Below are positions 2,808 through 60,940 of a stretch of 64,000 nucleotides of DNA, in pieces. Positions within the stretch are counted from its first letter, which is position 1, and each line of letters begins with the position of its first letter. A program made the position numbers and the translations under genes. The DNA is from Candidatus Yonathbacteria bacterium RIFCSPLOWO2_01_FULL_43_27. GTDB taxonomy: Bacteria; Patescibacteriota; Minisyncoccia; Phycocordibacterales; UBA1550. The notes beneath the pieces were generated by a model. The model was not told the DNA's origin. It saw nothing but the letters and a program-made list of their open reading frames with translations, and searched no databases. The DNA lies in contig MHUV01000003.1 of the NCBI GenBank assembly GCA_001823545.1, forward strand, positions 6,718 to 70,717, read 5' to 3'.

Positions 2808-5021
2808 TCATACGGTTACGAGATCTTTTTCGACACGCTTTAATGACACGGCATTTACCGCAACTATTATTGAAGACACACTCATCAAAAGTGCCGCAAA
2901 TTCTGGACGGAGCATAATGCCAAAGCTAGGATATAGAATTCCTCCAGCAATAGGAATTGCAAGGACATTGTAAATTGAAGCCCAAAAAAGATTCTGTTTC
3001 ATTTTGCGAACTGTTGCTTTGCTTAAGGTGATTGCTCGAAGAATGTCTAATGGGTCTGATTTCATAAGAACAACTTTTGCAGTTTCGATTGCCACGTCCG
3101 TGCCTGCACCAATAGCAATACCCACATCAGATTGAGCGAGCGCGGGTGCGTCGTTGACCCCATCGCCCACCATTGCCGTAAATTTTCCTTCTTCTTGTAA
3201 TTTTTTTACGTAGCTCGCTTTATCCGCAGGTATTACTTCCGCAAACACTCTTTCTATACCAATACGACTTGCCACATTCTCTGCGGTATTTTTATTGTCG
3301 CCGGTAATCATAGCAATCTCAATACCCAAAGCTTTCAAACTCTCAACGGTTTTTATGGCATTGGGTTTTATTGGATCAACTACACCAATCACTGCTTTAA
3401 TGGACCCATCAACAGCGAGAATCATAATCGTCTCCCCTTTTTCCAGAAACTCATTTATTTTTTGTTCCAGTATACCCAGAGCAATACCCTGTTCCTTCAT
3501 AAGTCTCACGGTACCGATAAGTAGTTGTTTTCCGTCGACAACGGCCTTTACTCCCAACCCTGAAAGATTTTTAAATTTATCAACCGACTCTGGCAATATA
3601 AGGTCGCGTTTCTTAAGCTCATCGAGCACGGCACCAGCCAAAGGGTGAGATGATTTCGCCTCTGCCGCGCCGACGAGGCGAAGTGCTTCGTCTGCACTAA
3701 AACCATCCACGGTAGCGATGTCAGTTACTTTTGATTTTCCTTCGGTAAGTGTCCCAGTTTTATCAAGGACAATTGCTTGGATTTTTGAAACTTGTTCTAG
3801 TGTGGGAGCATCTTTTATAAGAATATTATGTTTTGCCCCAAGGCCAGTACCGACAGCTACGGCAGTCGGCGTGGCAAGTCCAAGTGCGTCGGGGCAAGCA
3901 ATGACAACCGTAGCAATAGCAAAAGAGAGAGCCAAAAGGAGCGGTGAACCAACTATAAAATACCAAATTATAAATACCAAAAGACCTGATCCTACCGCCA
4001 CAATGACCAAGTACTTTGCAAACCTATCGGCGATTCTTTGTCCCGGAGCTTTTGAATTCTGCGCTTCTTCAACCATCGTTACAATTCGTGCAAGAGCAGT
4101 GTCCTTGCCGATTTTTGTTGCCTTAAATTTCACCGATCCGGTAGTGTTGATTGATCCCCCAATGACCTGGTCCCCAATCCTTTTAGCCGTAGGGATCGAT
4201 TCTCCAGTAACCAAAGATTCGTCTATGGCAGTTTCTCCCTCAATAACCTCACCATCAACAGGAACCTTGTCTCCTGGCTTAAGAATGATGATGTCACCAA
4301 GTTGTATATCGGATGTGGAAACCATCATCTCTCTGCCATCTTTAAAGATTCTGGCTTGAGGCGGTACGAGATTAAAAAGTGCCTGAAGAGCGTCTGTTGT
4401 CCCGCGACGAGATCTCATTTCCATCCAGTGACCGAACAAGACGAACGTGATAAGCATGGCAGCCGCTTCGTAATAGGAATCGGTACTTCCCATAAGAGTA
4501 AGCAGGATACTGAAGCCATACGCTGCAGTAATGCCGACGGCAATGAGTACCGCCATATTCAGTATTTTATTTTTCAACGCAAAATAAGTTGAATAGAGGA
4601 AAATCCATCCGGAATAAAAAAATACCGGTGTTGTTAACATAAAGAGGAGCCACGGTAAAGGAATTGGAGATGCCAGATCAATCCTTAAAAACTCGGTGCC
4701 TAAAGGCGAATACAAAATTATAGGAATGGTGAGGATAAGCGAGAAGAAGAATTTATTCCGAATATCTATCTCCATGAGGCGAGCCATTTCCCGACCTGCA
4801 AGTCCGGTATGATCCATGCCCATCGTCATCGACATACTCATCTTGAACTTTCCCCAGAATCCCATCTTCGATATATCGCCCATTGCGTGCCCAGAATGGG
4901 CACTATGCTTTTCCTGATCATCTTTCTTAACAAGCTTCATCCCACATTTCGGGCACGTGCCGAGTTTGCCCGAAACAACCTCAGGATGCATTGGGCAGGT
5001 ATACATTTTGTTTTCTTTCAT
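2808..5021 (-). CDS. copA: Copper-translocating P1B-type ATPase
   Basis: DKTGTLT phosphorylation motif, GDGVNDAPAL, TGES-like actuator, membrane CP(D)-ALGLATP motif (IACPDALGLATP). N-terminal metal-binding region YTCPMHPEV...CPKCGM followed by a His/Met-rich linker. Confidence 0.9.
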   Translation of the reverse strand: MKENKMYTCPMHPEVVSGKLGTCPKCGMKLVKKDDQEKHSAHSGHAMGDISKMGFWGKFKMSMSMTMGMDHTGLAGREMARLMEIDIRNKFFFSLILTIPIILYSPLGTEFLRIDLASPIPLPWLLFMLTTPVFFYSGWIFLYSTYFALKNKILNMAVLIAVGITAAYGFSILLTLMGSTDSYYEAAAMLITFVLFGHWMEMRSRRGTTDALQALFNLVPPQARIFKDGREMMVSTSDIQLGDIIILKPGDKVPVDGEVIEGETAIDESLVTGESIPTAKRIGDQVIGGSINTTGSVKFKATKIGKDTALARIVTMVEEAQNSKAPGQRIADRFAKYLVIVAVGSGLLVFIIWYFIVGSPLLLALSFAIATVVIACPDALGLATPTAVAVGTGLGAKHNILIKDAPTLEQVSKIQAIVLDKTGTLTEGKSKVTDIATVDGFSADEALRLVGAAEAKSSHPLAGAVLDELKKRDLILPESVDKFKNLSGLGVKAVVDGKQLLIGTVRLMKEQGIALGILEQKINEFLEKGETIMILAVDGSIKAVIGVVDPIKPNAIKTVESLKALGIEIAMITGDNKNTAENVASRIGIERVFAEVIPADKASYVKKLQEEGKFTAMVGDGVNDAPALAQSDVGIAIGAGTDVAIETAKVVLMKSDPLDILRAITLSKATVRKMKQNLFWASIYNVLAIPIAGGILYPSFGIMLRPEFAALLMSVSSIIVAVNAVSLKRVEKDLVTV

Positions 5022-6414: not shown

Positions 6415-7986
6415 TTATGGAGTTACATTAATATCAAGCTCTAATTTCAATGTCGGATTTGTTGCAGAATCAGTTTCTATATAGACGACCTTTTTTGCCG
6501 GACCCGCGCCTTGCGGTCCGTGCGCCGCTGGGTCTACCTCCACTTCGATTATAATTTCTTGTCCCGGTTTGACTATCTCATTTATTTTAGACGCAAGCCC
6601 GCCGTGCCCCGGCATACCAAACGGACCCTTACGAGATGTGCCATTTATAATGGTTGCTTCTGTACACATACAAGAAGTGGTAACACTGGCGATCTCTACC
6701 GAAGAACTACCAGTATTTTTTATCTTGAACGAATGACTAACTTTTCCGTTTTTCATCGAAACCGTGCCGAAATCAAAAGATTTCTCTGACGAAACAAGCT
6801 CGCTATAGTTGCCTTTGCCTGAAATTTCTGCATCTCTATACCACACACTAATCCCGTTTGGCATCTTACCCACGTTTATTTTCGCAACTTCTTTCTCCAT
6901 AGCAGTATCAATTATTGACACATCATCACTCTTGAGATTAGTAATGTACGCAAACTTCCCATTTTTAGAAACAGTAACTCCGTGAGGAGCAGACCCACTT
7001 TTGATAGCCTGTACTACGCTCATCTCCTTCAAATCAATCTTATAGATAGTATCGCCAATTGGCTGATCAAAATAGAACCCTTGATCGGCAACATACACAA
7101 AGCGTGAGTCAGGGGTAGGATAAAGCTGTACCGGTCCTTTTGCATCTTGTGGTAAATCAACGTAGCTCAATTTTGCCAAGGCAGTATCGTATACCGCTAA
7201 ACTTTTCGCGTCATACACTGAAGCTAGTGCATACTTCCCGTCTGGCGTGACACCTGTCTGCACTGCCGCACCATTGAGTGAAATGTCTTTTAAGTTGAAA
7301 CTATCGATATCAAGAACTCCCATACTTTTGCCCGACAACATCGCGATATATGCGGTTTTTCCATCTGGTGAGATACGAAGCCCATGAGGTCCACCACCTT
7401 TTTTTGTAGTAACTTCTTTCTCTACCTCAAACGAAGTAGTGTTTATTTTGTATATAATTCCCTTTTCTTGTGATGCGACAATGGCGTACCTGCTGTCGGG
7501 TGTTAAAGAAATATGCGAGAGGTGAAGTTCCTGCCCAATTTCAATCCTCTTTATAATTACGTCTGAGAATGGATCTATGACGATGACTTCGTCGTTGTTC
7601 CTTTGCATAGCCATCCCCTCCTCGCCGTGACCTGCGTTTGCTTCAGCTCTTGGTATGATACGAAACGACATTTTCATATTCTTCTCGTCTTCTGCGTTAG
7701 CGGTTACCCATACACTTTTATTATCCGGTGCAACTTGCACATTGTGTGGCATATAACTAACCGTTATGCCATCTGTATCCTTGGATAAATTTATTTTCTT
7801 TAAAACCTGTTTTGTCTGCGGATTGAGTACAGCGATTTCTCCGGAACCCTCAATTGCAACATATACTTTTTCTTCTACACGTAAGGAACTATTAATTTTG
7901 TTTTCCTGCTTGCCACTTCCGTAATTAATAATTACTCCAATTATCACGATCGCCACCAATACAATTATAATTTTAATATTTTTCAT
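6415..7986 (-). CDS. YVTN-type beta-propeller repeat protein fused to a C-terminal DUF1573-like domain
   Basis: N-terminal TM/signal. Repeated ~40-aa units with V..P DG/DS + ..Y(V/I)(A/T)N spacing typical of YVTN/lactonase-like propellers. C-terminus SFDFGTVSMKNGKVSHSFKIKNTGSSSVEIASVTTSCMCT matches the DUF1573 SC.CT signature. Confidence 0.6.
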   Translation of the reverse strand: MKNIKIIIVLVAIVIIGVIINYGSGKQENKINSSLRVEEKVYVAIEGSGEIAVLNPQTKQVLKKINLSKDTDGITVSYMPHNVQVAPDNKSVWVTANAEDEKNMKMSFRIIPRAEANAGHGEEGMAMQRNNDEVIVIDPFSDVIIKRIEIGQELHLSHISLTPDSRYAIVASQEKGIIYKINTTSFEVEKEVTTKKGGGPHGLRISPDGKTAYIAMLSGKSMGVLDIDSFNLKDISLNGAAVQTGVTPDGKYALASVYDAKSLAVYDTALAKLSYVDLPQDAKGPVQLYPTPDSRFVYVADQGFYFDQPIGDTIYKIDLKEMSVVQAIKSGSAPHGVTVSKNGKFAYITNLKSDDVSIIDTAMEKEVAKINVGKMPNGISVWYRDAEISGKGNYSELVSSEKSFDFGTVSMKNGKVSHSFKIKNTGSSSVEIASVTTSCMCTEATIINGTSRKGPFGMPGHGGLASKINEIVKPGQEIIIEVEVDPAAHGPQGAGPAKKVVYIETDSATNPTLKLELDINVTP

Positions 7987-8157: not shown

Positions 8158-8565
8158 TTAATTAAAAGATGGACTATTTATAAAAAGTGACAACCAGCGA
8201 GTAATAGCCTGTGGTCTGAATAATTTTGTACTATAATTACGGGACAAATAACGTAGTGATATACGTATATGAGATATCGACGGAAAATATTTTTGAAGCA
8301 CATATAGTACCCCTATCGTGAGTAATATTGTCATCAGTACCTGCGCGACAAATGAAGAAACAAGAACATTGGTGAATGTTTGGTACATGAAAAGAACGTG
8401 AGTGGCGGTAGATAGTGTTCCCGTTGGGCACGTAGAAGTATGGAGAGGCGTCGTAGGACAATTGTCACTCGTCATCCCGTCCATATGGTGTTCCATCGAA
8501 GAAAAGCTAAGAATTGCTCCCGCTATAAAGCCTATAAGTACTATAAATACGAGAAATTTCTTCAT
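8158..8565 (-). CDS. Small His/Met/Cys-rich membrane protein; candidate metal (Cu) binding
   Basis: Signal/TM MKKFLVFIVLIGFIAGAILS, then SMEHHMDGMTSDNCPTTPLHTSTCPTG, then a second TM. The C-terminal ~35 aa may be read-through. Confidence 0.4.
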   Translation of the reverse strand: MKKFLVFIVLIGFIAGAILSFSSMEHHMDGMTSDNCPTTPLHTSTCPTGTLSTATHVLFMYQTFTNVLVSSFVAQVLMTILLTIGVLYVLQKYFPSISHIRISLRYLSRNYSTKLFRPQAITRWLSLFINSPSFN

Positions 8566-27660: not shown

Positions 27661-28833
27661 ATGCCACACCATCCCGCAAAAAAAACAATGCTCCTTCTTG
27701 TGTATCTTGCAAGTTTTCTTTATTCGTTCCACTACGCACTCCCCCTCTATATCGAATCGTCATTCATTGCCCAGTTTCTTTCCACAGAAGAAATGATTGG
27801 CGTTATTTTTTCTATTGCCGCAATCATTTCTGTGGTAAGTATTTTTTTCTTTCCGAGAGTTCTTCGAAAATTTGGAAATTATCGTACCACGCTTGCAATT
27901 ATGGGGCTGGAAATTGCAACCCTTCTTTCGCTGGTGGCATTTTCAATACCGCTTGTTGTGGTGGGTCTCTTTATAGTACACCAAGCACTCCTTAGTCTTA
28001 TATTTTTAAACCTCGATACTTTTGTAGAGTCATACTCAGACAACCAGTCAACAGGAAGCATCCGTGGTGTTTTTATGACGGTTCTCAATATCGCGATAGC
28101 GATTGCGCCATTCCTTGCGGGACTTATGCTTACGGACCACGATTTCTGGAAAGTCTATCTCGCGGGAGCAATATTTATGTCCCTTTGCTTTCTGGTGATT
28201 GCGAAAAATTTTAAACACTACATTGACCCACAATACCTCGTGCCAAAGTTTAAAGATACAATAAAAACGGTGCTGAAAAGCCACGACCTTCATTCTGTCA
28301 TCTTTCTTCATTTCCTGCTCGCCTTCTTTTTTTCATGGATGGTAATTTATACACCTATCTATCTCAATAAGCACATTGGCATACCTATGAGTGATATCTT
28401 GAGCGTCATCATTCCTGTAGCACTCCTTCCCTTCATCTTTTTTGAAGCAATATTAGGCAGAATTGCGGACACGAAACTGGGAGAAAAGGAAATCGTTACT
28501 ATGGGGTTCCTTTTGATGGCAGTTGCCACCATGGGACTTTCGTGGATCACCTCAACCAGTGTTGTAGTATGGGCAGTTGCACTCCTTATTACCCGCATTG
28601 GCGCGAGCGCTGTAGAGTCTATGATTGAGAGTTATTTTTATAAAAAAGTAGGCCCCGAAGAAATCAATCTCGTAACCTTTATGCGTATGGTACGCGGAAG
28701 CGCTTATATTGTCGGACCACTTCTTGGCTCGCTCGTACTTTCGTTCATCAATTTCCGCTTCCTCTTTTTTACGCTTGGAATTATCGTTCTTACCAGTATC
28801 CCCTACACGCTCACGATCAAGGATACTAAATAA
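27661..28833 (+). CDS. MFS transporter
   Basis: 12 predicted TM helices in a 6+6 arrangement. Confidence 0.8.
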   Translation: MPHHPAKKTMLLLVYLASFLYSFHYALPLYIESSFIAQFLSTEEMIGVIFSIAAIISVVSIFFFPRVLRKFGNYRTTLAIMGLEIATLLSLVAFSIPLVVVGLFIVHQALLSLIFLNLDTFVESYSDNQSTGSIRGVFMTVLNIAIAIAPFLAGLMLTDHDFWKVYLAGAIFMSLCFLVIAKNFKHYIDPQYLVPKFKDTIKTVLKSHDLHSVIFLHFLLAFFFSWMVIYTPIYLNKHIGIPMSDILSVIIPVALLPFIFFEAILGRIADTKLGEKEIVTMGFLLMAVATMGLSWITSTSVVVWAVALLITRIGASAVESMIESYFYKKVGPEEINLVTFMRMVRGSAYIVGPLLGSLVLSFINFRFLFFTLGIIVLTSIPYTLTIKDTK

Positions 28834-28840
28834 AAGCGGT

Positions 28841-29115
28841 ATTTACCCCGAGGCAAAGCCCCGGTCAAAATGTGTTCGCTTCGCTCACCAATTTACCGCC
28901 CCAGAGGGGCAGGGTATTCAACCCTTGTATTATTCCATTACATGGACGGTACACCTTTTGGATTTTCTTTTCGTGATTACACGCAATAAAATCTCAAAAG
29001 GTCTTGCGAAGCTCCATGTATTCGCTTCTCACCTCGGCTCCCTGGCCGACTGCTGTCAGCGGGTTAGGCGGAAATGAGAAAGATTACTTTCTCATTTCAC
29101 TCGCTCTACGTCGCT
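28841..29115. repeat. Full-length (long variant) copy of the intergenic GC-hairpin repeat family
   Basis: Termini aaaagcggtatttacc ... ctctacgtcgctaatag. Hairpins CCGGGGC-ttt-GCCCCGG (as its complement here), CCGCCCC-aga-GGGGC(A/G)GG and GAAATGAGAAAG-attac-TTTCTCATTTC. Versus 58150-58320 (inverted) it carries a ~130-bp internal insertion that includes the 35-mer shared with 8039. Confidence 0.65.
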
Positions 29116-29120
29116 AATAG

Positions 29121-51766: not shown

Positions 51767-51791
51767 GCAATAATTATACTAGATAAAAAAA

Positions 51792-51898
51792 TAAATAGAA
51801 GCGGTATTTATCCTGTGGCAGGTCCCCGAACAAAAAAGATTACATTCTTTTGTCTTTGCCAACGACGCAAATTTACTAATTCGTCTACGTCGCTCATA
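51792..51898. repeat. Probable divergent member of the intergenic repeat family
   Basis: Starts agaagcggtatttatcc (compare aaaagcggtatttacc) and ends ctacgtcgctcataac (compare ctacgtcgctaatag). The internal sequence is unrelated. Confidence 0.4.
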
Positions 51899-57751: not shown

Positions 57752-58114
57752 CTAAAAGTGGTTTATCAAAAGAAGAATACCGATAATAGAGGTAACCACC
57801 ACGGTAAAAAGAACATACCCTGCCATCGTATCTTTTATCTTGCCAATCACCGGGTCAAAACTTGGTTCTATCTTGTTGCAAATGTCTTCAATTGCAGTAT
57901 TTACAATTTCCGCAGAAAGTACCGCGCCAATACACCCAAGCAGGATGACCCACTCAATAATTGAAAAGCGAAGAATGCCCGCACCTACGACCAAGACAAG
58001 TCCGATAACCAATTCGATACGAAAACTGAGTTCTTCGCGCCATACTGTGCGAAGTCCGTTCATTGCCCACCCAAAGCTCTTGATAAGTTTGTTCATCATT
58101 AATAATAATACCAA
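57752..58114 (-). CDS. dgkA: Diacylglycerol / undecaprenol kinase, prokaryotic DgkA family
   Basis: 120 aa with three TM helices; WREELSFRIE and AEIVNTAIE motifs. Confidence 0.7.
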   Translation of the reverse strand: MVLLLMMNKLIKSFGWAMNGLRTVWREELSFRIELVIGLVLVVGAGILRFSIIEWVILLGCIGAVLSAEIVNTAIEDICNKIEPSFDPVIGKIKDTMAGYVLFTVVVTSIIGILLLINHF

Positions 58115-58149
58115 AAACCACCTTCGAACAAAAGGTGGCTCTCGGTATG

Positions 58150-58320
58150 TTTATTAGCGACGTAGAGCGAGTGAAATGAGAAAGTAATCTTTCTTATTTC
58201 CGAGCCGAGAAGCCAATACAAGGGTATAATACCCCGCCCCTCTGGGGCGGTAAATGTGTGAGAAGCGAATACATTTTGACCGGGGCTTTGCCCCGGGGTA
58301 AATACCGCTTTTATCTATAC
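58150..58320. repeat. Short-variant copy (inverted relative to 28841) of the intergenic GC-hairpin repeat family
   Basis: ttagcgacgtagagcgagtgaaatgagaaagtaatctttcttatttc...ccgcccctctggggcgg...gaccggggctttgccccgg...taccgctttt. Confidence 0.65.
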
Positions 58321-58326
58321 TCGATA

Positions 58327-60120
58327 TTAATTCTCTTGTGTTTCAATTGGTTCAACAATCGATGATGGAGCGGTCGTCGGAGCAACAAACGTTCCTGTTT
58401 CTCCGGGTGGTGGTGGCATCACGGGAGGAGGATTCCACTCTCCAGAAGGCATAGTACTTCCTTCTTTATAAAACGGCATCTCGCCATCACGCGGTGGCAT
58501 ACCTTCATCACCTATCGGCGTACCATTATACGGTGGTGGTGGTGGCATGTTTCCATACTGAATATCTCTTTGCATATCAAAGGGTATCCCTTGCGCGCGA
58601 GGGTCCATCATTGGTCTGTCCTGATATTGAGGATCTATTAGTCTTCGTGGATCGAATTGAGGCCTTTCTCGTGGATGGAATAAAGATGAGGAAGTTCCCT
58701 GCCCTCCCTCAAATTTCGGAGGCATCATCTGCCCACGAAAATCCTGCGGTGGCATGTTTCCGCGCGGTCCTTCAAATTCACGCATACAAGTACTTACCGC
58801 TTGCCCGATAGCACCATCTTTACCGATCTGTGCAGTTCCTAATTCACGAAGAGCATCCTCGCCAACTTTATCTTTTACACATTCCTCAACCTGAGGAGGG
58901 AACATTTTTCCTTGGGGACGACCTTGCATAAAGGGCGCACCTCCACGAGGTGATGAAGTACTGCCCCCTTGTATGAACGGCACACCAAAACCTTCTCCGT
59001 CAGGACGCATCATTCCCGGGAATCCCATTCCTTGTGGCGCACCCTCTCTTTGTTCGTTCGGAGCACCTAAAACGCTTTCAAAACAACCGCGCATCTTCTC
59101 GCCAAAATCACGTTTGGGTGTTTGTCTGCCTGCGATCATTTGATCAAGAGCATCCTTCCCGACGACTCCCTCAAGACATTGTTTAATCTCGGCAGGTGCG
59201 TTCACAATCCCCTCTCTAAAACGCGTAAGACCCTCTTCCATCCGCGCTTTATCTTCAGGTCTGACAAGATCGTGTTCTTCAGCAAACTGCATACATTCGT
59301 CTTGATGTTCACTGCAGTATGTGTCGCATTGTTCCTTACCACGACATCCGCCAGGACCTTTACCACCAGTCTTTTTGATCATCTCTAAATCTGAGGGTGG
59401 AATGAGGTCATTCTCCTCACCGAATTTCAAACACTTCTCCATTATTTCATCACTTACAGGGTTCTCACATTGCTTAAAATCTTTCGGTGATTTGAAGGGT
59501 GCCTTTCCTTCTTCAATAAGTTTAAAAACCTTCTCGGCCTGAGCTCGGTCAACATGTGGAGGTAATAACCCCGCCTTTTCTGCAAACGCAAAACATGCAC
59601 GCGCAATGCCAACATTTTTTGGTTCTTCGCACATTTGTTTACACGACTCACCACTTGTACATCCTTCAGGTAGCGCCACACCACCCGCGAGTGCCTTCAC
59701 TACTTTTTCCGCTTCTTCAAGCTCCTGCCCTTTAAGAAGTCCGTGTGATTTACCGTACGTGACACATTCATTCATATTCTCCGGAGTGTCACAATAAGTA
59801 CGACAGCTTTTCTCCGGATCAGCCGTATTCGTCGCGCAATTACCAGGACCACCATCTTTCATGGCGATCTCTTTGCGGTCCATGCGCTCTTTTTGTTTCT
59901 CTTTTGCACTACCGACACCGTACGAGGCGGCAAAATCTTCACATGCATTTTGATGTTCGGAGACATCACAATATGCTTTACATGAAGTTTTGTCGGTACA
60001 TCCCCCAAGTTCAGTAATCGGGTACTCTATATCGAAAATAGATTTTGCGTATGCTGTCGTGGCGAACGCAGCAATCACGACAAACGAGCCAACAAACAAT
60101 TTATTTGAAAGGATTTTCAT
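58327..60120 (-). CDS. Secreted protein with 4-5 tandem ~45-aa Cys modules and a Pro/Gly/Met-rich low-complexity C-terminal half
   Basis: Signal peptide. Modules GGCTDKTSCKAYCDVSEHQNACEDFAASYG, GNCATNTADPEKSCRTYCDTPENMNECVTYGKSHGLL, EGCTSGESCKQMCEEPKNVGIARACFAFAEKAGLL, GGCRGKEQCDTYCSEHQDECMQFAEEHDL. Then PGMM/PPPP-rich sequence. Confidence 0.55.
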   Translation of the reverse strand: MKILSNKLFVGSFVVIAAFATTAYAKSIFDIEYPITELGGCTDKTSCKAYCDVSEHQNACEDFAASYGVGSAKEKQKERMDRKEIAMKDGGPGNCATNTADPEKSCRTYCDTPENMNECVTYGKSHGLLKGQELEEAEKVVKALAGGVALPEGCTSGESCKQMCEEPKNVGIARACFAFAEKAGLLPPHVDRAQAEKVFKLIEEGKAPFKSPKDFKQCENPVSDEIMEKCLKFGEENDLIPPSDLEMIKKTGGKGPGGCRGKEQCDTYCSEHQDECMQFAEEHDLVRPEDKARMEEGLTRFREGIVNAPAEIKQCLEGVVGKDALDQMIAGRQTPKRDFGEKMRGCFESVLGAPNEQREGAPQGMGFPGMMRPDGEGFGVPFIQGGSTSSPRGGAPFMQGRPQGKMFPPQVEECVKDKVGEDALRELGTAQIGKDGAIGQAVSTCMREFEGPRGNMPPQDFRGQMMPPKFEGGQGTSSSLFHPRERPQFDPRRLIDPQYQDRPMMDPRAQGIPFDMQRDIQYGNMPPPPPYNGTPIGDEGMPPRDGEMPFYKEGSTMPSGEWNPPPVMPPPPGETGTFVAPTTAPSSIVEPIETQEN

Positions 60121-60358
60121 ATTCGTTTTTGAAAGGATTAGTCTTTTCTAAAGGATTCACGGCAGGGACTGCAGCAGTGGCAGGATTGGTCTCTGGCGCA
60201 ACAGAAAGAGTATTTTCAACGACCTGTTCTATCGCTTGCGTGGTGTCGAGAGCTTGCTCTCTGGCTTGCTGTGTTGGACGCATAACCGTAAACCAGTACG
60301 CGACCCCAACGATTGCGATAAGGATTGCAACGATTTCTATAATCTTTTTTGTATTCAT
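60101..60358 (-). CDS. Small single-TM protein
   Basis: MNTKKIIEIVAILIAIVGVAYWF...; C-terminal NPFK repeats. Start chosen at the internal ATG to avoid the long upstream overlap. Confidence 0.3.
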   Translation of the reverse strand: MNTKKIIEIVAILIAIVGVAYWFTVMRPTQQAREQALDTTQAIEQVVENTLSVAPETNPATAAVPAVNPLEKTNPFKNEYENPFK

Positions 60359-60518: not shown

Positions 60519-60591
60519 TCCGTGATAGCTCAGTCGGTAGAGCGCCTCGCTGTTAACGAGGATGTCCCAGGTTCGAGCCCTGGTCACGGAG
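60519..60591 (+). tRNA. trnN: tRNA-Asn (anticodon GTT)
   Basis: TCCGTGA-TA-GCTC-AGTCGGTA-GAGC-G-CCTCG-CTGTTAA-CGAGG-ATGTC-CCAGG-TTCGAGC-CCTGG-TCACGGA-G; 73 nt. Confidence 0.9.
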
Positions 60592-60604
60592 CAAAAACAG
60601 TTAT

Positions 60605-60640
60605 GCCCCCGATATGAAAATATCGGGGGTTTACTGTTTT
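60605..60640 (+). terminator. Intrinsic terminator immediately after tRNA-Asn
   Basis: gcccccgatat-gaaaa-tatcgggggt followed by ttactgtttt. Confidence 0.7.
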
Positions 60641-60940
60641 CTCACGTGACCAGGGCTCGAAAGACGGAGGTCGCGAAGCCGATTTGAGCAAAGCGAAAAT
60701 CGTAGACCGAGTCGGGGTCGAGAGTACTTATGAGCAAAGCGAATTAGTAACTCGTGACCGCGCCCTGGTCGGCAAGCATTGATTAAGGGCTCGAACGCCG
60801 GAGCTATACCGAGCGAGCTACTCCGTGCGTCCGCACGGACGCTCTAGGAGCACAAAAGGTAGCGAGGCGGTGCCCAGACCGAGGCGAGTGACGACGAGCT
60901 GAGAGTCGAGGGAGAGATCCCTGGTTGTGTGGTTAGCAAA
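60641..60940. repeat. GC-rich repeat-rich non-coding island downstream of tRNA-Asn
   Basis: An inverted copy of the tRNA-Asn 3' end (cgtgaccagggctcgaa at 60645..60661, 17/18 match). Internal repeats gagcaaagcgaa (x2) and gtgacc(ag/gc)g..cctgg. Shares words (gagtgacgacga, cgagcgagc, gaccgag) with the tRNA-Trp island. Confidence 0.55.

Follow-up and report, generated by a model that had tools for sequence, protein, structure and literature searches.

The window analyzed here is a stretch of 64,000 nucleotides of contig MHUV01000003.1 (assembly GCA_001823545.1) from Candidatus Yonathbacteria bacterium RIFCSPLOWO2_01_FULL_43_27, in which a large open reading frame (ORF) at 58327..60120 on the minus strand codes for a 597-residue protein of an uncharacterized family. 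On balance, and by a modest measure, we favor the reading that this family comprises exported, disulfide-stapled helical repeat scaffolds with a disordered tail, which are tethered to the membrane by the product of a small partner gene. The ORF begins with an ATG, its position as given in an earlier note on this DNA proved exact, and the gene is intact and real. That note described a large secreted protein of tandem 4-Cys modules, a description borne out by a Sec-type leader and five matches to a module hidden Markov model (HMM); it missed a second repeat type, the distribution of the family and the partner gene. From upstream to downstream, the features of the locus are:

60101..60358, minus strand: partner gene directly upstream, coding for an 85-residue bitopic membrane protein (translation) with the tail ...NPA..NPLEKTNPFKNEYENPFK
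60046..60120, minus strand: signal peptide, aa 1-25, MKILSNKLFVGSFVVIAAFATTAYA then KS; Sec type with an A-x-A motif
59881..60012, minus strand: type-A 4-Cys module 1, aa 37-80; module HMM i-Evalue 1.8e-14
59677..59850, minus strand: type-A 4-Cys module 2, aa 91-148; module HMM 1.7e-17, three helices
59506..59670, minus strand: type-A 4-Cys module 3, aa 151-205; module HMM 6.3e-12, three helices
59359..59484, minus strand: degenerate type-A module 4', aa 213-254, with Cys C218 and C230 only; partial HMM match at aa 225-254, 2.7e-9
59209..59361, minus strand: type-A 4-Cys module 5, aa 254-304; the best module HMM match, 5.5e-22
59068..59202, minus strand: type-B unit 1, aa 307-351, a C-x30-C three-helix mini-domain; type-B HMM 1.1e-22, predicted local distance difference test (pLDDT) >90, C315 and C346 invariant
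58906..59067, minus strand: disordered linker 1, aa 352-405, P/G/M-rich; pLDDT <50 over aa 361-405
58768..58905, minus strand: type-B unit 2, aa 406-451; type-B HMM 4.9e-18, pLDDT 80-94, helices within aa 409-449
58327..58767, minus strand: disordered P/G/Q/M-rich C-terminal tail, aa 452-597, and stop codon; from pLDDT <50 and composition
58108..58148, minus strand: terminator-like hairpin followed by a T-run; 18-pair stem and T-rich tail

The protein has 22 cysteines, 16 of which fall into four 4-Cys groups (aa 41-60, 95-119, 154-176 and 259-276) with the spacing C-x5/10-C-x3-C-x6-11-C. A reduced group is formed by just C218 and C230, and the remaining four cysteines constitute two C-x30-C pairs (aa 315/346 and 414/445). 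The type-A HMM, which was built from 71 modules of the more regular relatives with the window sequence excluded, matches the protein five times (aa 37-80, 91-148, 151-205, 225-254 and 254-304; i-Evalues 3e-9 to 6e-22) and has the consensus gPGgCkskeeCeaYCsdpshieeClaFaekaglippeeleeakkvlkagkkg. The true period of these modules is ~53-60 aa, longer than the ~45 aa first estimated. The type-B profile spans 46 aa (consensus qaPpEVkeCLkekvGedvlekiksGekppspelgekmreCFesff) and matches at aa 307-351 and 406-451. Both type-B units lie in what had been described as a low-complexity C-terminal half: this description holds for aa 352-405 and 452-597 and fails for the two folded units. The region of aa 346-597 is 16.7% P, 13.9% G and 6.7% M, and PGMM, MPPPPPY and RPQFDPRR, formerly listed as repeats, each occur once only in this P/G/M/Q-rich tract. 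The cleavage site of the leader was placed by the AxA rule rather than by a predictor; MKILSNKLFVGSFVVIAAFATTAYA contains no RR and thus shows no sign of twin-arginine export, and the same signal peptide layout is seen among relatives.

The halves of the protein differ sharply in composition, as would be expected of an annotation artifact, that is, a Cys-rich gene joined by frameshift or chimerism to an unrelated low-complexity ORF, a case that the earlier note had itself raised. We regard this as vanishingly improbable and rejected it on the grounds of full-length conservation and the layout of the tail: the alignment of relatives with 65-73% identity extends over 97-99% of the query and takes in the tail, the tail itself harbors a folded type-B unit, and a tail of ~215 aa with similar composition is found in 104 relatives (means of 13% P, 12% G, 11% E, 9% Q, 5% M and 5% F).

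We obtained an AlphaFold2 model from a 68-sequence alignment, and it is all-alpha with three helices per unit (in module 1, aa 44-51, 54-66 and 72-89, with pLDDT >90). The pLDDT exceeds 90 over aa ~30-350 and reaches 80-94 over aa 409-449; aa 361-405 and most of aa 452-597 score below 50. The model thus predicts that the ordered part, made up of aa ~30-350 and 406-451, is a chain of three-helix units, five of type A (~53 aa) and two of type B (46 aa), with the remainder made up of ~200 aa of Pro/Gly/Gln/Met-rich disorder. The most conserved stretch of the family is TGGKGPGGCRGK, directly before module 5, and in the 68-sequence alignment T251, G252, G253, G255, P256, G257, C259 and G261 are invariant or nearly so. 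Cys, Gly, Pro, Phe or Leu occupies almost every invariant column of the family, and the conserved columns of its alignment hold no catalytic-type residue set; therefore, we read the protein as a scaffold or binding protein and not as an enzyme. The earlier statement that no family is recognizable is correct for Pfam, NCBIfam and the PDB sequences, none of which gave a family match for the window protein, and the family profile found nothing below E 0.4 among the PDB sequences. In a Foldseek search of the PDB the best hit had an E of 0.5, to PPR and annexin-type repeats, which amounts to generic helical similarity.

The family is represented by at least 504 matches in 5.8 billion proteins. When 1.84 billion cluster representatives were searched exhaustively with a profile, the thresholds E <= 1e-3, <= 1e-10 and <= 1e-30 yielded 1,969, 1,677 and 1,124 clusters, respectively; by these profile counts the family is discrete and does not trail off into many remote relatives. 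With one genome scanned per species, it was found in 285 genomes. The named carriers are Yonath-, Nomura-, Taylor-, Kaiser-, Jorgensen-, Harrison-, Sung-, Wolfe-, Lloyd-, Nealson-, Niyogi-, Lipton-, Colwell-, Yanofsky- and Wildermuthbacteria, all of them candidate phyla of the Parcubacteria/Paceibacteria. Some third-party assemblies with generic 'Saccharibacteria' or 'Gammaproteobacteria' labels also carry it; these labels look wrong because a locus labeled 'Saccharibacteria' (L007) is 70% identical to the window protein. Judging from these matches, the family is seen here almost only in the Parcubacteria/Paceibacteria. The window protein shows the hallmarks of the family, namely a Sec leader, at least five type-A modules with TGG[KR]GPG[GN]C, the type-B C-x30-C and the P/G/Q-rich tail. 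The identical protein is public as a 'hypothetical' or 'uncharacterized protein' (KKT81688.1, OHA78825.1, OHA82903.1 and UniRef A0A1G2SD01, from Ca. Yonathbacteria/Parcubacteria). Public homologs from the Yonath-, Kaiser-, Wolfe- and Nealsonbacteria, among others, share both its architecture and the gene pair, and none of them is named, contains a Pfam domain or has had a function described. Literature searches turned up no specific description of the family, the partner gene or the two repeat types.

The partner protein, MNTKKIIEIVAILIAIVGVAYWF...NPATAAVPAVNPLEKTNPFKNEYENPFK, consists of a Lys-rich N-terminus, a single transmembrane (TM) helix, a linker and a tail with NPx/NPF motifs, of which the NPF tail peptide EKTNPFKNEYENPFK is a candidate docking peptide. 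Its final 20 nucleotides overlap the start of the large ORF, and overlaps of 20-26 nucleotides are common across loci. A tail-bearing small ORF was found directly upstream in 74 of 80 loci with one script, in 81 of 85 with a second and in 76 of 83 by BLAST clustering, or roughly 80 of 83 overall; in the window it is an NPF-tailed small TM protein immediately upstream on the same strand, and the pair arrangement is also seen in Kaiserbacteria, Wolfebacteria and other loci. No other neighbor recurs in more than 6 of ~83 loci; therefore, the conserved unit is the gene pair. N74, P75, N82 and P83 never vary in a 33-sequence alignment of the partner, which gives NPxxxxPxxNPxxKTNPFKxxYxNPFE as the tail consensus; after the last NPF (or NPL), only 0-2 residues remain before the C-terminus. 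The partner matches no Pfam family; DUF5775 was considered and rejected, since a single member out of 33 matched it, with 23 bits where the cut-off is 28. The exact 85-residue sequence is absent from a collection of 15 billion proteins in which the large protein is present, and the small gene may be called with another start, or missed, in the public annotations of this genome. The N-termini of the large proteins (MKILSNK, MNTKILLNK and MKTRLNS) correspond to an alternate frame of the partner's (N)EY(E/K)NPF(K/E)-stop; in the window, the n-region MKILSNK is the alternate-frame reading of YENPFK-stop. Given that the NPF tail is equally conserved at loci without gene overlap, the tail is probably the selected feature, and the n-region of the large protein follows from it.

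Certain relatives depart from this general plan. One subfamily (L040, L045, L048, L050, L057, L064, L078 and L072) features an extra N-terminal domain, ...SLQPVGKSSYGG..., without a Pfam match. A LamG-like C-terminal region is present in L040, L050, L064, L072 and L078 (confirmed by Pfam for L040 and L050), and a Kazal domain is confirmed only in L050. The subfamily partners, except that of L072, end in ...NP[FY]KYxNPLR rather than ...NPFE; the L072 partner ends in ...NPLLNKYKNPFE. It follows that the two genes have diversified together. In most relatives, the C-terminus of the large protein displays a conserved P-T-S motif, after which come a short helix of amphipathic or hydrophobic character and, as the final residue, Arg/Lys (P0021, P0039, P0043 and P0047; e.g., ...APTSRLPQIGGSSLIANVVSILLALLW), with the general form ...PTSxL....SLLANVISxL..GR and not an LPXTG pattern. 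This helix could be a membrane-binding element or an unrecognized sorting signal. The window protein ends in ...APTTAPSSIVEPIETQEN and carries no LPXTG-type sortase signal.

Several observations bear on the state of the cysteines. First, given its Sec-type leader, with an AxA motif and no twin arginine, the protein should cross the membrane unfolded and without a cofactor. Second, the cysteines tend to be kept or lost in pairs: their count after the leader is even in 116 of 120 relatives, and 542 of the 656 modules of the relatives have all four, with most of the remainder being local alignments of the conserved 2-Cys module that are missing some Cys columns. A Cys is replaced by another residue in no full-length module alignment, except in one truncated 543-residue variant. 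All 68 aligned sequences retain C218 and C230 of the 2-Cys module; E-N-P comes directly after C218, just as E-E-P does after C3 of module 3, which indicates that the 2-Cys module lost C1 and C2 and kept C3 and C4. Its retention of C3 and C4 suggests C1-C2 and C3-C4 bonds, and we infer this pairing for the type-A modules and one closing bond for type B. Third, longer relatives fuse the modules to Laminin_G_3 (E 9e-27 and 3e-24) and Kazal domains; LamG and Kazal are extracellular domain types, and Kazal is disulfide-rich. Further, according to a published survey, genomes of the candidate phyla radiation (CPR) are enriched in an MdbA-like membrane thiol-disulfide oxidoreductase, often adjoining VKOR (bioRxiv 10.1101/335083). 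The cysteines thus probably form extracellular disulfides rather than metal sites.

Of the two readings proposed in the earlier note, 'disulfide-rich' is the better one in light of the even Cys counts, the pairwise loss, the Sec leader and the LamG/Kazal fusions. The other, which fared poorly, envisaged metal binding; in its full form, a metal or redox protein would hold Zn, Fe-S or Cu in the 4-Cys modules and capture Cu(I) with its Met/Pro-rich tail. It could draw on the four Cys per module, the 6.7% Met of the tail and a heavy-metal P-type ATPase encoded at 2808-5021 in the window. We nonetheless hold it to be quite improbable: export in an unfolded state and the Cys patterns just described, with their near-absence of swaps, argue against it, the tails of 104 relatives contain anything from 0 to 15% Met, and neither MxM nor MxxM occurs in the window tail, which has just 1 His. 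Moreover, the ATPase lies 53 kb away and is no part of the conserved neighborhood, which is limited to the small gene.

The scaffold reading that we favor can be cast as a mechanism. The overlap of the two genes would couple their translation and thereby match the output of the two proteins. The positive-inside rule predicts an N-in/C-out orientation for the small protein, and its NPF tail would therefore share the compartment of the exported repeat domain. There, the tail would dock on the helical repeat domain through a putative binding site and tether the large protein to the outward-facing side of the membrane. The repeat units would be stapled by disulfides outside the cytoplasm, and the P/G/Q/M-rich region would provide a flexible spacer that lies within the cell wall or passes through it. 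Overall, the protein would serve the cell envelope as a scaffold, structural or binding and without enzymatic activity, and would not be a metal-binding protein. In its boldest form—a disulfide-stapled solenoid that recognizes the free C-terminal NPF tail of its co-translated anchor, the pair being a surface complex peculiar to the Parcubacteria/Paceibacteria and a core element of their unusual envelope or of the interface with the host—we offer this proposal as a tentative idea with the odds clearly against it.

Certain results weigh against the scaffold reading. The number of NP[FYW] motifs is uncorrelated with the number of modules (Spearman rho -0.07). This rules out one NPF motif per Cys module, a possibility that we had considered, and any binding would therefore be to one conserved site; for the count of all NP motifs against that of modules, rho is 0.30 without phylogenetic correction. 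The amphipathic helix that ends most relatives is missing from the window protein and from its Yonathbacteria clade, and a role for that helix is thus inapplicable here. No thiol oxidoreductase or VKOR is present among the ten ORFs scanned in the window, which is only 64 kb long. Finally, the disulfide connectivity is drawn from patterns of Cys loss, rather than from coordinates or experiment.

A different role for the same architecture would be that of a surface adhesin or host-contact protein, with the helical head binding a host-cell ligand and the disordered tail serving as a stalk. The export of the protein and the addition of LamG lectin-like and Kazal domains in longer relatives fit with this, as do the prevailing view of CPR bacteria as mostly surface-attached symbionts and the variation of the module count between lineages, from 5 to 11. 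However, an identity of 40-45% between candidate phyla, together with the invariant TGGKGPGGC, represents unusually strong conservation for an adhesin; the gene is present in a single copy, with no paralog or extra modules elsewhere in the window; and the invariant partner, with a tail that is likewise conserved, suggests that what the protein binds is internal and conserved, and not a variable ligand on the host. We accordingly give the adhesin a minor share of the probability.

Slightly less probable, in our view, is a scaffold or regulator of cell-wall biogenesis comparable to LpoA/LpoB or the TPR-type regulators, which reach through the wall on disordered linkers to the synthases. A helical repeat domain with a long disordered linker fits this layout, and the strong conservation suits a housekeeping role. 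Further, the pair follows the genes for a Mur ligase and Ddl in a Kaiserbacteria locus and precedes one for DAGK_prokar (Pfam: prokaryotic diacylglycerol kinase) at 57752-58099 in the window. As conserved neighbors these are anecdotal and were set aside: gene neighborhoods are not conserved beyond the small gene, and the terminator-like hairpin, which probably ends the two-gene unit, parts the ORF from the DAGK_prokar gene. Sequence and fold searches also show no similarity to Lpo. The membrane-tethered envelope scaffold remains the reading that we prefer over both the adhesin and the wall regulator.

Beyond the gene pair, the repeat element that had been noted immediately downstream is real. 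It spans 58115-58330, between the stop codon of the ORF and the terminator, and has partial copies in both orientations at 2698-2787, 28827-28931, 29069-29119 and 51791-51835 with 78-98% identity. It contains internal GC-rich hairpins (e.g., CCCCGGGGCAAAGCCCCGG and CCGCCCCAGAGGGGCGG), Rfam returned no match for it apart from tRNA-Asn, and from its sequence it looks like a repetitive extragenic palindromic (REP) element or a miniature inverted-repeat transposable element (MITE). On the other side of the pair, a ~400-nucleotide non-coding stretch (60620-60930) lies between a tRNA-Asn gene (60519-60592, plus strand) and an NYN-domain gene. By eye, it contains sequence resembling the repeat element (ctcggtctacg...cgctttgctca), with a strong hairpin at 60605-60630; this stretch was not among the matches when the downstream element was compared with the window by BLAST. 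Far from the pair, the heavy-metal P-type ATPase at 2808-5021 (minus strand) features an HMBD domain. Near it, two minus-strand ORFs at 6415-7986 and 8158-8565 code, respectively, for a secreted YNCE-like beta-propeller/DUF1573 protein and a small exported protein containing Cys, His and Met (MKKFLVF...MEHHMDGMTSDNCPTTPLHTSTCPTGT) without a Pfam match. The three may constitute a metal-handling cluster, unrelated to the Cys-repeat protein.

The Parcubacteria/Paceibacteria are abundant, uncultivated and ultra-small, and the biology of their envelope and host attachment is largely obscure. To this our analysis adds two undescribed repeat domains, whose structure is predicted with confidence and which have no solved relative, together with a probable disulfide pattern and a partner gene with a synthesizable motif. 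Should the pair prove to be a core complex of the envelope, it would provide a useful marker and an entry point to the study of the cell surface; if not, the large protein is an ordinary lineage-specific secreted protein.

Among known systems, the only Pfam signal is AtDEF-like (PF25052), with 10.7 bits and an E of 0.69 against a cut-off of 25; it is precomputed for three relatives and reaches 18.5 bits in P0118. The likeness lies in the Cys spacing. Defensins have a Cys-stabilized alpha/beta fold, unlike the all-alpha predicted model, and we rejected a defensin-like identity on account of both this difference and the sub-threshold score. Closest in working principle are HcpB and HcpC of Helicobacter and human COA7, disulfide-containing Sel1-like helical repeat proteins that form non-enzymatic solenoids and bind peptides or proteins (PMC8892353). 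Like them, the window family would combine exported or compartmentalized alpha-helical repeats with in-repeat disulfides; its unit differs in having three helices, ~53 aa and four Cys. Sel1 gave no match at E <= 10 in Pfam for the window protein and none in its relatives, and fold searches found no structural similarity to HcpB (1KLX) or HcpC (1OUV).

A second comparison concerns the mode of recognition. NPF is the classic ligand of EH domains, and the presence of a conserved motif 0-2 residues from the free C-terminus of the partner (NPF-E/K-COOH), beside a helical repeat protein, is reminiscent of both the TPR-EEVD clamp and eukaryotic EH-NPF binding, a likeness that serves as a lead only. 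Neither by sequence nor by fold does the protein match EH (an EF-hand pair), TPR or ARM. The setting also differs, being extracytoplasmic and bacterial. Should the solenoid indeed recognize the NPF tail of its anchor, the pair would represent an extracytoplasmic bacterial counterpart of TPR-EEVD and EH-NPF peptide recognition.

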